Positions 11,101 through 22,024 of a DNA stretch of 22,342 nucleotides are shown here, one piece after another. How positions within the stretch are numbered: the stretch's first letter is position 1; each line of letters begins with the position of its first letter. Made by a program: the position numbers and the translations under genes. The notes beneath the pieces were generated by a model. That model was not told where the DNA came from and did not search any database. It was given only the letters and a program-made list of their open reading frames with translations. The DNA comes from Candidatus Micrarchaeia archaeon (GTDB taxonomy: Archaea > Micrarchaeota > Micrarchaeia > Micrarchaeales > CABMGC01): positions 1 to 22,342 of the forward strand of contig JBMFIM010000013.1 of the NCBI GenBank assembly GCA_049976305.1, read 5' to 3'.

Positions 11101-11225
11101 GCCAGGGTGGCGGAATCTGGTAACGCGCTGGTCTTGAGCTTGCAAAGCTTCAAGAGCTGAATTGTGATGCAAAAGAAAACCAGTGCCCCTTCGCGGGCTT
11201 TAGGGTTCGAATCCCTACCCTGGCG
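11101..11225 (+). tRNA. tRNA-Ser(UGA) with 39-nt intron at 37/38 (11139-11177)
   Basis: Acceptor GCCAGGG/CCCTGGC plus discriminator G; anticodon stem CTGGT/ACCAG around CT-TGA-G|intron|A; long variable arm GCCC-CTTCGC-GGGC; T arm TAGGG-TTCGAAT-CCCTA; CCA not encoded. Confidence 0.92.
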
Positions 11226-11417: not shown

Positions 11418-12533
11418 CTAATGGCCCAGCCTCGAAATTACAAAGATTTGCATTAGCTCTATTAGAAGTTCGACAAGTATCAAGAGAATTATGATAAACT
11501 CAAGAATATCATTATCCTTCTCTCTCAGTTGCTCTATGATAAGTGATTTTCTGGCAGAGAGCGTGCCAGCATCCCTTGTAAGCGAGTCTTTAAGTTCATT
11601 CAACCTAAAGCTTGACGCAAAAAGTCCGTAGAGTCTTGAGAGATACCATTCACCCATGCTAAAAACAGTGTTCTCTGCCCAGTTGAGAATATATGTCATT
11701 TCATTTTCAAATTCGCTAAACACCATATTTAATTTTTCTGCCTTTTTAGTGAATATTCTCGAAAAGAATCCCATCTTTCCTATCGCAGTAACTTCAGCAG
11801 TGGTCTTTTGAATGAGTGCCGATACCTTGTCTTTGTAGGTCCTAAACTTAAGGAGCTGCACGTTCGCTATCTCAGCTACAAGTAGCTCATAATCATAAGA
11901 TCTTGATTTGTCTAGCAATACTGCCCCTTCCCAGCCCACATAAAATGCATCATCACTGGCGTATGAAATATTTTTCGAGAGTGTGTAGTTTAAGTAATCT
12001 GCATCAAGCTCTTCTGCATTTGGTTCGTCTATTAGCATGCCTGCTATCAAGCTTTTATAGTTTTCGAGGCCTTCCTGCTTGCTTATGTTGAGGTAGTAGA
12101 AATAGTAGAGCTCATTGATGTTTGACACTTCTATGCCTTCAGGGTATAATTTTGCTAAAGCATTTTCAACCCTTTTTCTAGCCCTTTCAGCTATTTGGCT
12201 TAGCTGCCTTTCAACATCTTTGTCAAAGGCGAGCATCTCTAGGGTATGCCGCTCTGCTCCTTCAAACAGAATCCTTATTCTTATAGAGAAGGAGCCTATG
12301 CTGTAGATTGCTACCTGCTGCCTAGTTTTAAGCACTTTGTCGCGCAATTTCACCTCTCCCTCTCCAAGGTTGAAAACTTGGGGCAGGCTGAATGTAGGAA
12401 GTTCTTCTGGCGCCGGGGCGGTGTACTCGTATTTTGAAAAATCCTCAGGTTGTCTTAGCAAATTTTTTACTCTCTCTTCTTCGAAAGTCTTGTCTGTGTC
12501 ATAAATATACATTCCTATGAATTCGCCATCCAT
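11418..12533 (-). CDS. RMD1/DUF155-related protein with C-terminal TM helix
   Basis: EIANVQLLKFRTY, GEWYLSRLY...F and terminal ILEFIIILLILVELL resemble the RMD1-like C-terminus (LEWIII.LI..E). Confidence 0.65.
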   Translation of the reverse strand: MDGEFIGMYIYDTDKTFEEERVKNLLRQPEDFSKYEYTAPAPEELPTFSLPQVFNLGEGEVKLRDKVLKTRQQVAIYSIGSFSIRIRILFEGAERHTLEMLAFDKDVERQLSQIAERARKRVENALAKLYPEGIEVSNINELYYFYYLNISKQEGLENYKSLIAGMLIDEPNAEELDADYLNYTLSKNISYASDDAFYVGWEGAVLLDKSRSYDYELLVAEIANVQLLKFRTYKDKVSALIQKTTAEVTAIGKMGFFSRIFTKKAEKLNMVFSEFENEMTYILNWAENTVFSMGEWYLSRLYGLFASSFRLNELKDSLTRDAGTLSARKSLIIEQLREKDNDILEFIIILLILVELLIELMQIFVISRLGH

Positions 12534-12727
12534 AAATTTATTGAAAGAAGCAAAATATAAAAGAGCATTTACAGCAGCATATCTCCTTTATTCTTTTCCT
12601 CTTTTCCTTTTCTAGATGGTTATTGCCAATTGACTTTAAAAATCCAAAAGCCAAGCATTAAGTAGTAAAAATGTCATTCCAGGGTTGGAGTTTTCGCAAG
12701 TGCATCTTTATACTTCAGCGTAGCCAT

Positions 12728-13312
12728 CTATTGCAACTTAACTAATGCTTCTATGGACCTTCGCACTCGCACACCGCTCTTCGATGCGTACACTCTAAGC
12801 TTGTGCTTATCTGCGTTGTCTAGTAGCACACGCACGACTTCGTCTTCGAGCCTAATTCTGTAATAGGCGAAGTCTATGACTGTTTTCTCTATATCAGAAA
12901 CTGGAACAAAGAGACCTGAATATTTCACATACTCAAAGCCAAACATCATCTTCTTCGCTATCCTTCTTACTATGATCCTGTGGCCCATAATCTCTTTCTC
13001 CCCAGGCTTTGCTTTCGTTGCAGTTATAACTACAGGATTCGCCATCTGCGTCCACAACCTCCTTATAGTAAGCGCATATTCTAGGCCATAGTAAAAGGGT
13101 GCGAACCTGAATCCTACAACGGCCTCGTTGTTGGAGAAGGTATAATAGCCGTTGCCGAGTGCAAAGATCCTATGCTTCTTAACCTGGTTGTGGATGAACA
13201 GCTTTGCATATGCCTCCGACGCGCCAAGTTTCGACATAAAGCGTTTTGCATCGTTGAGCGTGAATATGCTTTCTTTCGAGAAATAATTTTCAAATTCCTT
13301 TTCATACTTCAT
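12728..13312 (-). CDS. AbiEi-type (type IV TA) antitoxin / transcriptional regulator
   Basis: N-terminal wHTH (IFTLNDA...LGNGYY), PFYYGLEYAL...L, VSDIEKTVIDF; start overlaps the restored stop of the upstream nucleotidyltransferase. Confidence 0.85.
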   Translation of the reverse strand: MKYEKEFENYFSKESIFTLNDAKRFMSKLGASEAYAKLFIHNQVKKHRIFALGNGYYTFSNNEAVVGFRFAPFYYGLEYALTIRRLWTQMANPVVITATKAKPGEKEIMGHRIIVRRIAKKMMFGFEYVKYSGLFVPVSDIEKTVIDFAYYRIRLEDEVVRVLLDNADKHKLRVYASKSGVRVRRSIEALVKLQ

Positions 13313-13947
13313 TCAACCATCTCTTTAGGTAGTCAACAATTTCTCTGAATGTATATTTACCATATCCTTTGTATACTAGCGACCTCAGTATATACTCATC
13401 TACAGGCTCCTTCAAGCCTTTTACGAATTCCGAGAATTTCTGCCTTACATAGTAATCGTTTTTGTCTTAGGAAATTGGTCAGCTGGACTAGGTCATACAA
13501 GTCCCTTATGTAGCGCCTGCTCGAATAGGCTTTCATCTTCCTCACTGCAAGATCAAGCGGCGAAAGCGTAAATATAGTCATGCGCGTGCCGTCGACCTTT
13601 TCATACTGTGCTAGAACACTCTCCGGTCTGCCTGTCTTTGCCTCAAGCAATACGGTTGTCTGTCCGTCTGAAATGCGCACATTAGATTCCAGCTCTGGAT
13701 TTCTCCAAACTACTACAAGATTGTGTTTTTTCAGCTCAGGAAGCAGTCTTTTGGAAAATGATTTGGAAACATAGATGTCAATGTCTTCGGAAAACCCGCC
13801 TCCACCATAGCAGCGCCATACTGCGGTACCACCATACAGCACAGCGTCGGGCTGCACATGATTGTATATTATCTCAATTAGCGTGTCCTGAAGCTGTGCG
13901 ATTGCAAGCTTCTCGCCGTGGAGCATGCTTCCTATTGGGTAGTCCAT
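13302..13947 (-). pseudogene. AbiEii-type nucleotidyltransferase toxin, frameshifted (+1) near 13467
   Basis: YGGTAVWRCY...FSEDIDIY, K..AY..R...RDLYDL. Removing one base at CTA-A-GAC restores LDKNDYYVRQKFSEFVKGLKEPVDEYILRSLVYKG...LKRWLNEV* with its stop at 13302, overlapping the antitoxin start; total span 646 nt = 3n+1. Confidence 0.8.
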
Positions 13948-14021
13948 AATATTAAAATAACCAAAAGTTATAATAATATATATCTTTTATTGATTAAATT
14001 ACTTGCCGTAGGAATCGAATA

Positions 14022-14069
14022 CTTACCTTTGGCAGAAGTAAATTTGGCCTTAATCTTACCTTTGCAGAA
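14022..14069. repeat. Imperfect direct repeat CTTACCTTT(G)GCAGAA x2
   Basis: Copies at 14022-14037 and 14055-14069, upstream of the AbiE pair. Confidence 0.55.
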
Positions 14070-14075
14070 TCATGG

Positions 14076-15059
14076 TCACGGCGGCGTGTAGCCCTGCCAC
14101 CAATTATTTATAAATACAACATTATTCGGCACGCCGTGGTTGCCGTTGCCACTGTAGTCGTTGGCGTTGCCGTTCAATGGCCACCAGCCTGCAAGGTGCT
14201 GCAGGTCTATGGGCGCGCCGCCTATGCCCTCTTGATAGAGGGCCTGGATTTCGTTTGATGAAAGGGAGGTATTGTAAAACTGGACATTTGCTAATAAGCC
14301 ATTATAATTATAACCACAGCAATGCGGACCACCAGTACCTGTACCACCTATAGAAACAAACTGTCCAACCCCAACCAAATTTGACGAACCTATCGTATTT
14401 GCATATACCTGTTGCCCGTCTAAATAAAGAAATTCACCTGATGTATCAGAGCCAGTTATTGCAAAAAAATGCCATGAATAGGGATTTGGCAATTTAAAAA
14501 TTTTCCAATTTCCCCCATTCATACATCCACCATAATATATAGTGGTAGTATTACTACCAACACTCACTTGTTGTGCCCATTCATCTGTAAATGGCAAACC
14601 TCCGCCTCCTGATGAATAGGCGGGCAATCCCATATATTTAAACCACAAAGTTACTGTTGCTGCTTTGAGATTAGGATTTAAAACATATGGATCAGCACCT
14701 ATAGGAATCCAGCTTGTATTGCCGTTGAACTCTGCCACATACTCTGGCAGCTCGCCCTGGCACTCGCCCTCCAGGTTTATGTCAAATGTCGTGCCAGGCC
14801 CGTTTGGCCTGAATACCTGGCAGGCGCCTGGAGGCGCCTTCGGGGAGAAGTTGTTGGCATTGAAAACGCCGAGCTGAAACAAGGCGCCGAGCACAACCGC
14901 TATTATGAGTATGGCCCAGCCATATGTCATAAGGTATTCCATTGCTGACTGGGCTTTTGCTTTGGCCCTTGCCAAAGACCTTGCTTTGAACATGGTTTTA
15001 TGATTAGGGCGATTTCTTTTCCAACCTTGCATGTATGAAGCCTTGCCCTTTTTCTGCAT
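14076..15059 (-). CDS. Class III signal peptide (pilin-like) protein with LamG/concanavalin-like jellyroll domain
   Basis: KA/QSAMEYLMTYGWAILIIAVVLGALFQLG prepilin-type motif; AEFNG, TVTLWFK, WHFFAIT, LYLDGQ, NGLLANVQFYNTSLS, WWPLNGNANDYSGNG. The start may be ATG 14993. Confidence 0.88.
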   Translation of the reverse strand: MQKKGKASYMQGWKRNRPNHKTMFKARSLARAKAKAQSAMEYLMTYGWAILIIAVVLGALFQLGVFNANNFSPKAPPGACQVFRPNGPGTTFDINLEGECQGELPEYVAEFNGNTSWIPIGADPYVLNPNLKAATVTLWFKYMGLPAYSSGGGGLPFTDEWAQQVSVGSNTTTIYYGGCMNGGNWKIFKLPNPYSWHFFAITGSDTSGEFLYLDGQQVYANTIGSSNLVGVGQFVSIGGTGTGGPHCCGYNYNGLLANVQFYNTSLSSNEIQALYQEGIGGAPIDLQHLAGWWPLNGNANDYSGNGNHGVPNNVVFINNWWQGYTPP

Positions 15060-15124
15060 GCCCTCACTGATAGTATTGAAAAAAACAATAAATACTTTTC
15101 TGCCTGCCTTCGCAGAAAAAGGTT

Positions 15125-15256
15125 TGGGGTTGCTGGGATTTGAACCCAGACTTGCAGGTTACTTCACGCATCGTGCTTCCAGATCTTCATCATCGCAACG
15201 CTCATCAAGCTTAAGCATCTGGAGCCTGCCGCGCTGCCAGGTTACGCTACAACCCC
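15125..15256 (-). tRNA. tRNA-Trp(CCA) with 59-nt intron at 37/38 (15160-15218)
   Basis: Minus strand: acceptor GGGGTTG/CAACCCC plus A; anticodon stem GCAGG/CCTGC around CT-CCA-G|intron|A; T arm CTGGG-TTCAAAT-CCCAG. Confidence 0.94.
15160..15218 (-). ncRNA. Putative intron-encoded box C/D guide RNA
   Basis: Intron reads TTGATGA-GCGTT-GCGA-TGATGA-AGATCTGGAAGC-ACGA; TCTGGA is complementary to TCCAGA, which spans the anticodon loop. Confidence 0.65.
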
Positions 15257-15279
15257 TCAATCTTGTTTGCTTTCTAACG

Positions 15280-15295
15280 CTTATATATTTTTCTC
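15280..15295 (-). promoter_or_regulatory. Putative BRE/TATA promoter of tRNA-Trp, embedded in the 3' end of the upstream CDS
   Basis: Minus strand GAGAAAAA-TATATAAG, 24-39 nt upstream of the tRNA 5' end. Confidence 0.55.
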
Positions 15296-16114
15296 AGAAA
15301 GGAATAAGATAATTGCCTGCGATACAAGCAGCCTGCTTTGGCTTTCTTGCACATTTGCGTTTGCAGCAAGCTCTTTGCATTTTTCCTCGTTGCAAATTAT
15401 GAACTTTTCAGACCTTTTTAGCACGCCTAGGTCCAATTTTTCCATCTCTTGCTTTTCCGCACCTGATCCTTCAGGAATAAAGGTGTCAACGTATACGGCA
15501 TCAGTGTCTTCCACAGCCTCGGCCACATTGTTAAAAAGATCTACCACTCCATGTTCTCTTGCCTTTACTAAGTATAGCGGATTGGCGCTGAATGCCTGGG
15601 GGCTTGCTATCGCTACGCTAAGGCCTAGCTTTGCTGCTCCAAGCATTAGGGAATTTACGCTGCCTAGGTTGGGATTGCCCACTATTGCGAGCTTCCTTTT
15701 CCTGCTTATACCTATCTGCCTTCTGAATAGATAAAGAGCAGAAAGCGCCAATATTGGATGCTCCAGCTCTGTGCCGGCGTTTATCACAGGCACCGAGCAC
15801 AATTCGGCAAACTTAGCAAGGGAATCCTGGCTTGATAGCCTTGCAGCAATGAAATTGGCATACGTGCTAAGCACTTGGGCATACGAAGCCAAGGTTCGGT
15901 TTTCAAAATTGAGATATATCGCTCGGCCGCCAAGCCTTGATATGGCTACTTCAAGTGCAAGCCTCGTCTTCAGCGAGCTTCTCTGGAAGAGAAGGGCAAG
16001 TATGGAATCAGGCTTTATTGTTATTTCTTCCTTCCCCGCCCCAACATCGTCTGCTATTTCGAAGATTGCGTTTATCTCTTCCTTTGAAAGGTCGTCTATG
16101 CCAAGCAAGTGCAT
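15281..16114 (-). CDS. Degenerate ornithine/aspartate carbamoyltransferase-family protein
   Basis: HLLGIDDLSKEEI, LLFQRSSLKTRLALEVAISRLGG, VPVINAG..EHP, DAVYVD; catalytic motifs altered. Confidence 0.85.
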   Translation of the reverse strand: MHLLGIDDLSKEEINAIFEIADDVGAGKEEITIKPDSILALLFQRSSLKTRLALEVAISRLGGRAIYLNFENRTLASYAQVLSTYANFIAARLSSQDSLAKFAELCSVPVINAGTELEHPILALSALYLFRRQIGISRKRKLAIVGNPNLGSVNSLMLGAAKLGLSVAIASPQAFSANPLYLVKAREHGVVDLFNNVAEAVEDTDAVYVDTFIPEGSGAEKQEMEKLDLGVLKRSEKFIICNEEKCKELAANANVQESQSRLLVSQAIILFLSEKNI

Positions 16115-16119
16115 AGAAT

Positions 16120-16590
16120 CTAGCCAAATATCATGCCAAGGCCCTGCTCAGCTCCCTCCCTTTCATTCTTTATTGCCTCTATTACCTTCCTCTCGCTTTC
16201 AGGGTCTAGCCTGCTTATGCTCTTCACAGCGTTTTTCAGCTTCTTCTCCGCAAGCTCCCAGTCTGAGTCAGAGCCCGAAAGGTCAATGTACAAGTATTCC
16301 AGGCTAGTGTCAAGCCCAAGCTCGCTTCCGCTTTTTATTTCATAATCCTGCCTTGCAAATATTATGTTTGCTTCTTTGTCGCTCTTGAGCTTTTGCAAAG
16401 CTTCATCTATCTTCTTTGCAAGCTCTTCCGCCTGCTGCTTTATCTCAGGATGCTCAGCAAGGTACTTAGGATCATTCCACTGGCTAGGCATAGAAGGAAC
16501 AAGGTTCTTGTCCAAATACGGGTCGTAGGTGAGGACTTTCTTTAGCTGCTCCTCGTCAGCAGGTGAGAAGGAGTAGACTCTAGCTGTTAT
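16120..16590 (-). CDS. Conserved-looking archaeal hypothetical protein (probable ATA start at 16590)
   Basis: The frame is open upstream of TTG 16515 (ITARVYSFSPADEEQLKKVLTYDPY); FARQDY, YLYID, C-terminal AEQGLGMIFG; GGGTGA RBS-like sequence before ATA; abuts the rps8e stop. Confidence 0.7.
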   Translation of the reverse strand: MTARVYSFSPADEEQLKKVLTYDPYLDKNLVPSMPSQWNDPKYLAEHPEIKQQAEELAKKIDEALQKLKSDKEANIIFARQDYEIKSGSELGLDTSLEYLYIDLSGSDSDWELAEKKLKNAVKSISRLDPESERKVIEAIKNEREGAEQGLGMIFG

Positions 16591-16594
16591 GCAG

Positions 16595-16993
16595 TCACCC
16601 CTCTACAAGCTTTGCCACTACGTGACCTTCCCTGCTAGGCCTGTTGAGCACAATGGCTTTGCCAAGCTCGGTTTGTATGACAGAGCCTTTTGTTATTATT
16701 CCGAGCCTTGCAAAGTTGCGGTTGTCCTTAGACTCTACTACACCGCTTATCTTCGCCTTCTTGTAGCCCTGCTTTGTCAGAACGTTTGCCACATCAATTC
16801 TCTTCAGCTTGGGCAGGAGCACACCGCCTCTTCCGCGCCTTTTCTCTACAACCTTCTTGTCTCCGACTCTCGTAGCTGCGAAATAGCCTCCAAACTCATG
16901 CCTTCGCTTGTCCCTGCTTTTCTTTAGCACTTTGCCGTTGCCTGTGGACTTGGTGTTCGACCTTGCATGCATCTGTATTCCAAATTGGCTCAT
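16595..16993 (-). CDS. rps8e: 30S ribosomal protein eS8
   Basis: RS..KSTG...KRRHEFG, RGRGG, NRNFARLGIITKGSVIQTELGKAIVLNRPSREG. Confidence 0.96.
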   Translation of the reverse strand: MSQFGIQMHARSNTKSTGNGKVLKKSRDKRRHEFGGYFAATRVGDKKVVEKRRGRGGVLLPKLKRIDVANVLTKQGYKKAKISGVVESKDNRNFARLGIITKGSVIQTELGKAIVLNRPSREGHVVAKLVEG

Positions 16994-20566: not shown

Positions 20567-22024
20567 ATGAGGGCAAGGCAGAAAATACGTGCCACACTGG
20601 CAGGCGTGTTTATTGCAGAAGTACTTGTTCTCTTTCTTCCTATTCTTATGCACATTTACTTCCTGATACTGCTCCTTGGATTGGCATTTTTCCTGGCGCA
20701 GTATTTTCTAGTTCCATTCCTGCTCGGGCTTGTCTTGGGAATAAGGTACATAAACAACAAGGACAGGCTTTACAAGGCAATAGAGCGGGAAATAGGCAGC
20801 TATGGCTTTGAGAATTTCAACCTAGGGCTCGCAAACCTCGGCTCGCAAACAACGGCTTCGTTCAGGAAGGGCTTTCGCGACATAACCTTTGTGCTAGACC
20901 ACAGCCTGAAAAACAAAAACAAAAGAACGATAATGCGTGCGTTGAAGAGGGAACTAGAGGCGCAGTCTGCTGCTGAATACATAATGTCCTATGGCTGGAT
21001 GATTCTGATTGTGTCTATTTTGCTAATGGCGCTTTTCAAGCTAGGCCTGTTTAGTTACAGCGCCAATATTTGCGTGCCTCAAGCAGGCTTTTTGTGCAAC
21101 AACATTAACCTGCTAGGCGGAGGCCTTCTTACTTTCAGCATAGGCACCTATGCGCCCATGCACATCTTCGGCATAGCTTGCACAATTGGCAGTTCTCAGC
21201 CCACTAACTTTACAGGGGTCAACATAAATTCAGCGCCTGGAAAAATAACTATCACAGGTACGACCTGCCCAACAAAAAGCAGCTCTGTCTCAGGCACAAT
21301 TTGGATAGAATATACAACCCCTTATTATAGCCAGCCCCAGATAGCGGAGATAGGCAAGTTCGTAGCCTCGGCCCAGCAGCCAGCTCTTTCTGCTGTTTTT
21401 AACGGCAAGAATAGCTCAATAGTAGTGCCCTACTCTCCTCTATTTAACTTAGGAGACCCTAATTTCACCTTTGTTGCCTGGGTGATGCCACACGGATATC
21501 CAGTTAAGGGCACTAGCGGCAAGGGGTTTCCGCTTTCAGGCATAATCTTTGAGAGAGAACCGTCTTATGCTTGGGGCATAAACTCCACAGGCTACCTTAA
21601 CTGGATTATAAACTATCCAGGCAAGACCATGCCTACAAACATCTACACTCCTTTAAACAACTTTACACAAGTTGTGCTTACATTCAATGGCTTCTATGTA
21701 GCAGCTTACAAAAATGGCCAACTGGGCAGCGTGATACCGGCGCCAATAGTAAACAACTCAAACCTCAACGCACTTATTATTGGAGCAAGGAATGCATCAG
21801 GCACTCCAAACACCTTCTTTAATGGAAGCATGGTCAACATACAAATTTACAACACGACCCTCTCTCCGCAGCAAGTTAAGTATTTGTATAGCGAAGGCTT
21901 GTATGGCGCCCCAATAGCAAATGCAGGGATTGTAGCATGGTGGCCATTAGACGGCAATCCTAACGACTACAGTGGCAGCGGCAATAATGGCCAAGCAAGC
22001 ACTGTATCGTGGAATGCTACCTGA
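20567..22024 (+). CDS. Membrane protein: HtpX-like N-terminal remnant + internal class III signal peptide + LamG-like domain
   Basis: Two N-terminal TMs; internal EA/QSAAEYIMSYGWMILIVSILLMALFKLG at about aa 131-160; C.PQAGF.C pilin-like segment; AVFNG, FTFVAWV, YKNGQL, FNGSMVNIQIYN, WWPLDGNPNDYSGSG. Confidence 0.85.
   Translation: MRARQKIRATLAGVFIAEVLVLFLPILMHIYFLILLLGLAFFLAQYFLVPFLLGLVLGIRYINNKDRLYKAIEREIGSYGFENFNLGLANLGSQTTASFRKGFRDITFVLDHSLKNKNKRTIMRALKRELEAQSAAEYIMSYGWMILIVSILLMALFKLGLFSYSANICVPQAGFLCNNINLLGGGLLTFSIGTYAPMHIFGIACTIGSSQPTNFTGVNINSAPGKITITGTTCPTKSSSVSGTIWIEYTTPYYSQPQIAEIGKFVASAQQPALSAVFNGKNSSIVVPYSPLFNLGDPNFTFVAWVMPHGYPVKGTSGKGFPLSGIIFEREPSYAWGINSTGYLNWIINYPGKTMPTNIYTPLNNFTQVVLTFNGFYVAAYKNGQLGSVIPAPIVNNSNLNALIIGARNASGTPNTFFNGSMVNIQIYNTTLSPQQVKYLYSEGLYGAPIANAGIVAWWPLDGNPNDYSGSGNNGQASTVSWNAT

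Follow-up and report, generated by a model that had tools for sequence, protein, structure and literature searches.

Results and Discussion

A pilin-LamG gene in a variable interval between two tRNA genes

The window, the whole stretch of 22,342 nucleotides that was analyzed, makes up contig C13 of a Micrarchaeota assembly (G000) of 723 kb and 93.7% completeness. Micrarchaeota genomes are labeled G, the contigs of G000 C, families f1 and f3, loci L, and database proteins P. Positions 14076 to 15059 on the minus strand hold an open reading frame of 327 amino acids from the first ATG, with a second in-frame ATG at 14993, which we call the pilin-LamG gene or C13 gene. Its product matched PF13385 in a Pfam profile search (E = 1.5e-10, amino acids 129–272), and its relatives carry source names of LamG-like proteins of Candidatus Micrarchaeia. 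Class III signal peptides combine a basic leader, a conserved glutamate at +5, and a hydrophobic helix of about 20 residues, with cleavage before the mature N-terminus. These features are present in the pilin-LamG protein, as a basic leader, E at +5, and KAKA/QSAMEYLMTYGWAILIIAVVLGALF; the mature N-terminus QSAMEYL... and the hydrophobic pilin-type helix (residues 2–27 in the structural model) are encoded at 14871–14951, minus strand. The rule agrees with PMC4858521. Q1, E5, Y6, and L7 were invariant in 138/138 aligned genes, rows that had been chosen by the same motif, and no Pfam pilin model matched the protein. Above the cut-off, G000 had three matches to the secretion ATPase family PF00437 and one to the prepilin-peptidase family PF01478.

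An AT-rich, promoter-like element together with the start of the leader (15044–15104, minus strand) is common to four other G000 loci, all at contig ends (95% identity over 58–60 nt to C1, C4, and C7; 96% over 123 nt to C25). The element may act as a promoter. Five loci thus share it along with the leader start, i.e. there is no single expression locus. Directly upstream of the gene lies an intron-containing tRNA gene (15125–15256, minus strand; Rfam RF00005), whose anticodon is CCA (Trp) by eye and Arg(CCT) according to ARAGORN -i. This tRNA gene is the right edge of a variable region, and a second one (11101–11225, plus strand; RF00005) is its left edge. The sister species G004 was 91% identical to the window from 15123 rightwards and 90% identical leftwards up to 11225, where the match stops; the 315 bases behind its right tRNA were unrelated to the window, and its contigs stop inside the inter-tRNA interval on both sides. 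Because identity ends at both tRNAs and the sequence behind the right one is unrelated, we regard the interval as variable. We found no att-like duplicate of the 3′ end of the tRNA in G000.

The variable region also holds an AbiEii-family nucleotidyltransferase gene and the gene behind it (12728–13947, minus strand; PF08843, E = 3.2e-9), both unmatched in G004. The gene at 12728–13312 had no Pfam match and, from its position, is a probable AbiEi-like partner. The AbiEii frame (13396–13947; 183 amino acids, Pfam positions 12–170 of 238) may have been shortened by a frameshift or an assembly error; relative to the window, the base at 13467 is absent from the contigs of all four runs compared. 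The neighbors of the pilin-LamG gene have host-like GC3 (0.41–0.51). At 91% identity, a contig of run X1 has the AbiE genes next to a family 3′ end, showing that the arrangement exists in another population. Runs X2–X4 were small-share and were left out of habitat inference; at window positions 15150–15218, an X2 contig has eight letters in place of 67 tRNA intron bases, as in a relative with a much shorter intron. Three of the six family loci checked sit immediately behind a tRNA gene (the C6:14159–14180 region, the start of C4, and window position 15125).

The core and the ends differ in codon usage

A prior sequence-only reading had described an AT-rich core set in frame between GC-rich constant ends. 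Its hand counts of GC content were right in all five cases (0.65 at 14161, 0.333 at 14461, 0.367 at 14521, 0.567 at 14761, and 0.60 at 14821), the frame is open for 327 codons across the mosaic, and the switch in codon choice is strong: synonymous third positions were G or C at 92/140 sites in the ends versus 26/137 in the core (Fisher P = 2e-15). The counts at fourfold sites, 47/70 and 16/70 (P = 2e-7), show that the contrast is not an amino-acid effect. Core GC3 (0.229) fell below all 959 non-overlapping 144-codon windows of the other long G000 reading frames (mean 0.49, SD 0.065), and the end-minus-core contrast of 0.444 compares with a maximum of 0.216 in 1217 control windows.

The family set comprised 145 complete genes of 28 genomes, drawn from the top matches listed (493 further matches lie outside the list) and from the genomes with core matches; both end motifs and a length of 240–340 were required, and near-duplicates were kept. 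All 145 genes have their own signal peptide, which was a selection criterion. In 135 of them, AT-rich genomes included, GC3 was lower in the core than in the ends (mean difference 0.126), and therefore composition alone proves nothing; it is a pointer, not proof. The gene at 14076–15059 had the most extreme contrast in the set. The high GC3 of its ends (0.66) was reached by 33 of 2179 genome windows, and two ribosomal-protein genes were lower (0.45 and 0.57); GC-biased conversion is a possible cause.

The ends are of resident type

The 5′ constant end (14721–14951, minus strand) is identical at 194/231 nt to an unlinked paralogue in the same genome, C6:14290–15273, compared with 146/228 nt for G179, a Micrarchaeota genome of another family. 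The 3′ constant end (14076–14229, minus strand; EGIGGAPIDL...WWPLNGNANDYSGNG...YTPP) is identical to C6 at 147/171 nt over 14249–14079 and is also 88% identical to C19 and 86% to a remnant at the start of C6. C6 matches both ends at 83–86% at the DNA level, and has no DNA match in the core; protein identity over the 5′ end, core, and 3′ end was 0.92/0.25/0.82 against C6 and 0.64/0.78/0.80 against G179. The 5′ region found 119 further database proteins, and in the 116 that were split into segments, median identity was 0.87 in the 5′ end, 0.24 in the core (maximum 0.32), and 0.77 in the 3′ end. Protein P0008 has the same leader and agrees with the gene product in 95% of the 5′ end and 23% of the core.

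Further family 5′ or 3′ ends sit at contig ends in G000 (C12, C16, C19, and C25), and many contigs break at the constant ends. Since these ends are repeats, the gene repertoire is undercounted in Micrarchaeota assemblies. Family remnants consisting of the 3′ end only occur at C6:114–227, C6:16599–16706, and about C2:46935–46990, two of them with unrelated DNA directly in front; they may reflect either gene turnover or the use of the constant end as a one-sided anchor for foreign DNA.

The core has its closest relatives in another family

The AT-rich tract (14233–14718, minus strand, its 3′ limit lying somewhere in 14250–14229) comprises most of the LamG/pentraxin beta-sandwich. Over 14720–14250, 370/471 nt (79%) are identical to G179. 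A search of 5.8 billion proteins with the core by itself yielded two relatives (78% and 69% identity), both with another type of 5′ end. Within the order, core matches occurred in 9 of 248 genomes, G000 included: G179, G191, and G190, which form one genus of family f3, at 77–78, 70, and 68%, and five more at 37–42%. In the same 248-genome search, 0/5 genomes of the window's own genus carried this core type, and the maximum in its own family was 42%. The close core loci in the three f3 genomes have 28–34% GC, and an 18-kb stretch of G179 has 29% GC with GC3 of 0.15–0.32.

The degree of core identity is out of line with vertical descent. SecY of G000 is 61–62% identical to that of G179, G190, and G191, and 15 matches from the 18-kb G179 stretch were 28–72% identical to G000. 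Within the donor genus, SecY identity is 90–94% (91% between G179 and G190), yet the cores of G179 and G190 are only 72% identical. As cores evolve faster than SecY, 78% core identity across families indicates transfer. Synonymous codons agree: 75/106 were identical between the core and G179 (null 59.9, P = 2e-4) and 80/121 between the ends and C6 (null 58.0, P = 2e-4), whereas SecY against G179 was near its null (99/282, null 91.3). This signal holds for G179 only. The core showed no significant excess against G190 (52/95, null 49.6), where the SecY control lay above its own null (116/282, null 95.0), and the C6 core showed none against G026 (57/109, null 52.9).

These comparisons show that the core was imported from an AT-rich lineage (~30% GC) of another family. 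Its AT-rich codons, and its presence in three donor-genus genomes, suggest that the direction was from AT-rich to GC-richer. G179 itself, with a 21% DNA difference, was not the immediate donor. The sequence-only reading had named paralogues or other organisms as sources of swapped cores; it is the second, f3 relatives, that fits here, and its placing of recombination in the conserved ends also stands.

Breakpoints and trees

At 294 sites that distinguish C6 from G179, the best tract ran from 14718 to 14233, with donor-like bases at 156/184 sites inside and 20/110 outside (chi2 127; none of 200 permutations exceeded 25). A G004 copy begins to agree with the window at about 14250, which sets the 3′ limit at 14250–14229. 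The two switches proposed from codon usage are real, with their positions revised: the 5′ switch lies at 14721/14718 rather than 14715, and the 3′ switch lies past the NVQFYN motif at 14250–14229 rather than at 14270.

The proposed comparison of flank and core phylogenies gave conflicting trees rather than congruent ones. The end tree groups the gene with C6 and G003; the core tree groups it with G179 and G190. When imposed on the ends, the core grouping was rejected by the AU test (P = 9e-5 in a full search, 2.6e-4 in a fast search), as was the ends grouping when imposed on the core segment (P = 5e-139). The AU tests used 20 genes and the end tree had 47 rows; 15 more genes and four near-duplicates were either part of that tree or omitted from it. 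For the 20-row core tree, which has no bootstraps, SH-aLRT was added, and a fast search supplied its constrained tree.

Two short segments in the 3′ end bear on how the exchange might have taken place. A GC-rich stretch of 38 nt at the 3′ breakpoint (14194–14231, minus strand) is a candidate recombination anchor. It had a degenerate exact match in 4 of 248 genomes: G000 (three copies), G004, G208, and the AT-rich G191, where, on a contig of 31% GC, it interrupts the A/T-ending codons of a gene that also carries a relative of the C6 core. End patches can thus apparently travel from GC-rich to AT-rich genomes as well, and could supply the homology that G179's own ends lack. The other segment is an AT-rich patch (14103–14127, minus strand; codons NNVVFINN) with eight consecutive A/T third positions. 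Its NNVVF codons equal those of G190, three sites side with G179 and two with C6, and it is possibly left-over donor sequence, although this is suggestive only.

An exact 39-nt 3′-end pattern was also present in a gene for a 1155-amino-acid multi-LamG protein (L071:1279–4746), and end patches may be exchanged with such large multi-domain genes. The metagenome scan with this pattern returned one locus, the 1155-amino-acid gene, and no allele of the pilin-LamG locus. A scan of viral sequences with the pilin-LamG protein, which covered close relatives, gave one pattern match and no confirmed relative.

The exchanged segment within the fold

An AlphaFold2 model from a 138-row alignment (pLDDT 88.5) predicts a helix at the N-terminus, followed by a small constant neck that holds two conserved cysteines and by a pentraxin/LamG sandwich at mature residues of about 63–291. 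The sandwich aligned to 4dqa with Z 22.5 (rmsd 2.9, 205 residues aligned) and to pentraxins and PAPP-A with Z of about 21. Such matches, at 12–19% identity, include non-lectins, and the fold shows no function; carbohydrate binding by the LamG head is putative. In the model, the imported tract corresponds to residues of about 78–240, covering some ten strands and also the constant NVQFYN strand and helix, and the constant tail closes the fold. The core had been read as a ligand-binding jellyroll enclosed by the switches. Most of the beta-sandwich was indeed swapped, but not the whole domain, as the fold includes the constant 3′ end. Because the tract fits within a fold closed by constant ends, swaps would be expected to keep both frame and fold.

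Constant ends and variable cores across the family

The family as a whole combines genome-specific ends with diverse cores. Among the listed family genes, the nearest neighbor was in the same genome for 119/131 5′ ends, 114/131 3′ ends, and 45/131 cores (chance 18.6), and core identity was 0.242 within genomes versus 0.235 between them (145 genes); 261 sequences fell into 215 core types at 60% identity. Family genes are not independent, owing to kinship, and these nearest-neighbor, identity, and type counts are descriptive rather than tests. Same-genome core neighbors above chance mean that within-genome duplication contributes too. Exact runs between copies within a genome had medians of 12–47 nt in the ends versus 8–11 in the cores, the longest reaching 112 nt in the ends and at most 13 in the cores. 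Core GC3 was overdispersed in 6/6 multi-copy genomes (chi2/df 1.95–5.4, compared with 0.6–1.9 in the ends), as expected of mixed origins.

The C13 gene is not the only candidate. Matches to the C6 core were confined to two f3 genomes, G026 (80% identity, in two copies) and G191 (84% across 65 amino acids), with 0/117 in genomes of its own family; it appears to be a second exchange in the same genome, so that we are not dealing with a single event. Database protein P0114 has the C6 core type between G000-like ends (0.93/0.75/0.92). Elsewhere, some pairs have cores more alike than their ends: G122/G159 (0.55/0.85/0.73) and G179/G191 (0.64/0.84/0.77).

Several other loci show related patterns. 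At about 581,000–604,500 of G026:C1 (L031, L012) lies a tandem array with a repeat unit of about 1974 bases, in which copy pairs have an identical 5′ end and core and a 3′ end only 86–94% identical, i.e. recent recombination at the 3′ end. G000:C12:897–2705 and L056:2–997 (G004) have the pilin N-terminus and first domain in common and unrelated C-terminal parts, which may represent module exchange beyond LamG cores. The 3.4-kb loci L078 (G159, f3) and L079 (G084, f1) are nearly identical across two families, gene and neighbors alike, reflecting either very recent transfer or a binning error. The paralogue at 20567 in the window had been put forward as sharing the boundary motifs around a divergent core. 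The motifs are indeed common, but its GC3 is even (0.40–0.63 in 60-codon blocks) and it is 93.9% identical, core included, in G004; as a conserved orthologue in the sister species it was ruled out as evidence of exchange.

How the core may have been exchanged

Together, the comparisons establish the mosaic ancestry of the gene, its donor clade and direction, its breakpoints, and ends that are genome-specific across the family. We propose that pilin-anchored surface proteins with a LamG/pentraxin fold form a family with constant ends and hundreds of core types, in which recombination between copies would keep the ends alike within each genome and the ends would serve as landing pads. Incoming Micrarchaeota DNA would recombine in these ends by general homologous recombination, presumably of the RadA type and with no dedicated enzyme, replacing the core in frame. 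New cores would then be selected because they change binding, most likely to host-surface glycans or proteins, once the protein has been processed as a type IV pilin. For the C13 gene, we think it probable that incoming DNA crossed over directly in the constant ends of a resident copy and replaced its core, and infer this route in preference to import of a whole gene with later overwriting.

The latter route, in which a complete donor gene would first have entered and gene conversion from resident paralogues would then have replaced its ends, so that only the unconvertible core stayed foreign, is a serious but rather unlikely alternative. Both routes need recombination at the ends and yield the same product. 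Donor and resident ends are little alike in DNA (64% and 72% for G179), and exact runs shared between the G179 and C6 ends are at most 11 nt, which offers little for direct crossover; conversion of ends between copies is evident from the long exact runs described above; the patch at 14103–14127 partly resembles donor codons; and the gene sits in a variable region between two tRNAs, absent right behind the tRNA in G004. Against this, the leader and upstream element are of resident type, 95–96% identical to four other loci, and the neighboring genes have host-like GC3. The resident-type anchor in an AT-rich genome further indicates that homology for direct crossover exists in the donor clade.

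A dedicated programmed system, whether silent cassettes, a shufflon, an integron, or a DGR, is very improbable as the driver of the exchange. The sequence-only reading had proposed a cassette-exchange system while noting no reverse transcriptase or recombinase in the window; for reverse transcriptases and tyrosine recombinases, the latter observation extends to the whole 93.7% complete assembly, which had no PF00078 or PF00589 match. PF00589 tyrosine recombinases were present in all 14 control genomes. The idea of silent cores found no counterpart in the assembly: a core HMM matched six G000 reading frames, none a bare cassette and one truncated where its contig begins. In six genomes, the codons at either junction differ from copy to copy, including the third positions of 44 G014 copies, leaving no invariant DNA site, and the core had no DNA match elsewhere in G000. 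Its differences from relatives occur throughout and hit all bases rather than adenines only, unlike the template repeat of a DGR. On the other side, 3′-only remnants and, in relatives, tandem arrays exist, and a cassette store could have stayed unassembled where contigs break at the constant ends.

An assembly chimera, to which a metagenome-assembled genome is open, is slightly less credible still. Many contigs break at the constant ends, which are repeats. When contigs of four runs (at most two samples) were placed on 12301–16800, the bins 14401–14700 were uncovered in all and both ends well covered; no contig joins the gap, and hence this is not evidence. An assembler needs a shared k-mer, however, and the longest exact run to G179 outside the tract is 12 nt, so that a join would need a donor copy with resident ends, itself a mosaic. 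The pattern is seen in two independent genes, and P0114 repeats the C6 core type with G000-like ends around it; the most that a chimera could do is place a core at the wrong locus. Least credible is that no exchange occurred and that vertical descent with constrained ends and relaxed codon bias in a fast core produced the pattern: core GC3 is lower family-wide and the ends do carry structural strands and a helix, but 78% core identity across families against 61% for SecY and 28–72% for the 15 other matches, synonymous sites unsaturated against G179, and AU rejection of both groupings refute it unless G179, G190, and G191 are all mis-binned or misplaced.

Relation to known systems and significance

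Expanded jelly-roll LamG genes have been reported in 'Ca. Mancarchaeum acidiphilum' and other DPANN archaea, some at type IV pili loci or genomic islands, with a proposed role in host interaction (PMC5498576). The Micrarchaeota LamG expansion is alike; constant ends, variable cores, and core exchange between lineages do not appear in the portion of that paper available to us. The architecture is alike to that of modular type IV pilins with a lectin module, such as Streptococcus sanguinis PilC and the IPR012902 + PF13385 architecture (PMC8179133), in its class III signal peptide, its ConA-like/PF13385 module, and its expected display on a filament. Those pilins are bacterial, however, and the accessible text of PMC8179133 describes neither a large family nor exchange of the module interior. 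By analogy with them, and given the protein architecture and the three secretion ATPases and peptidase, an adhesion role would be plausible for the pilin-LamG protein; virus evasion, which the sequence-only reading had also put forward, is conceivable too.

The closest parallel in mode of exchange is the bacterial flagellin H antigen, with conserved ends, very divergent middles, recombination with incoming DNA that ends in the conserved parts, and transfer between taxa (PMC7018530). Constant ends, many divergent middles (215 core types here), a middle common across taxa, and breakpoints at or in conserved ends are shared. Flagellin is an unrelated protein, and the pilin-LamG genes differ in forming a multi-copy family (up to 44 copies from one genome), in keeping one fold, and in a source clade that can be named; according to the same paper, no source is known for any E. 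coli or Salmonella region and transfer is low for archaeal flagellins.

Antigenic variation at Neisseria pilE/pilS offers a second parallel, as recombination in conserved blocks alters the exposed part of a type IV pilin. This resembles the pilin-LamG case, except that silent copies and a single expression locus were not found in G000 and that the donor is another organism (for the Neisseria system, see PMC13017665). Within our literature searches, which covered main texts and few subscription papers, no core exchange was described in a LamG-pilin family. The main texts of PMC13705601 and PMC4858521 contain no LamG, laminin, concanavalin, or Micrarchae-, and PMC6142677, as far as available, treats surface-protein SNPs in Nanoarchaeota only. 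What appears to be new is thus direct evidence that a core was swapped between families, with a donor clade that can be named; LamG expansion, the architecture, and flagellin-type exchange were already known.

How DPANN ectosymbionts recognize and change their hosts is described as an open question (PMC11329633). It is conceivable, and we offer it tentatively, that Micrarchaeota share an order-wide library of hundreds of plug-in cores, that the ends, including traveling anchors, allow two-way exchange between genomes of 30% and 45% GC, and that each core might change host attachment, amounting to a host-range switch that needs no enzyme of its own. In the C13 gene, a piece smaller than a gene has crossed from one archaeal family to another, and both its source clade and its breakpoints have been identified. 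The case makes the vague idea of LamG attachment testable, as cores of known donor could be set into one pair of ends and tried on candidate hosts, and the shared cores predict common hosts or habitats across families.
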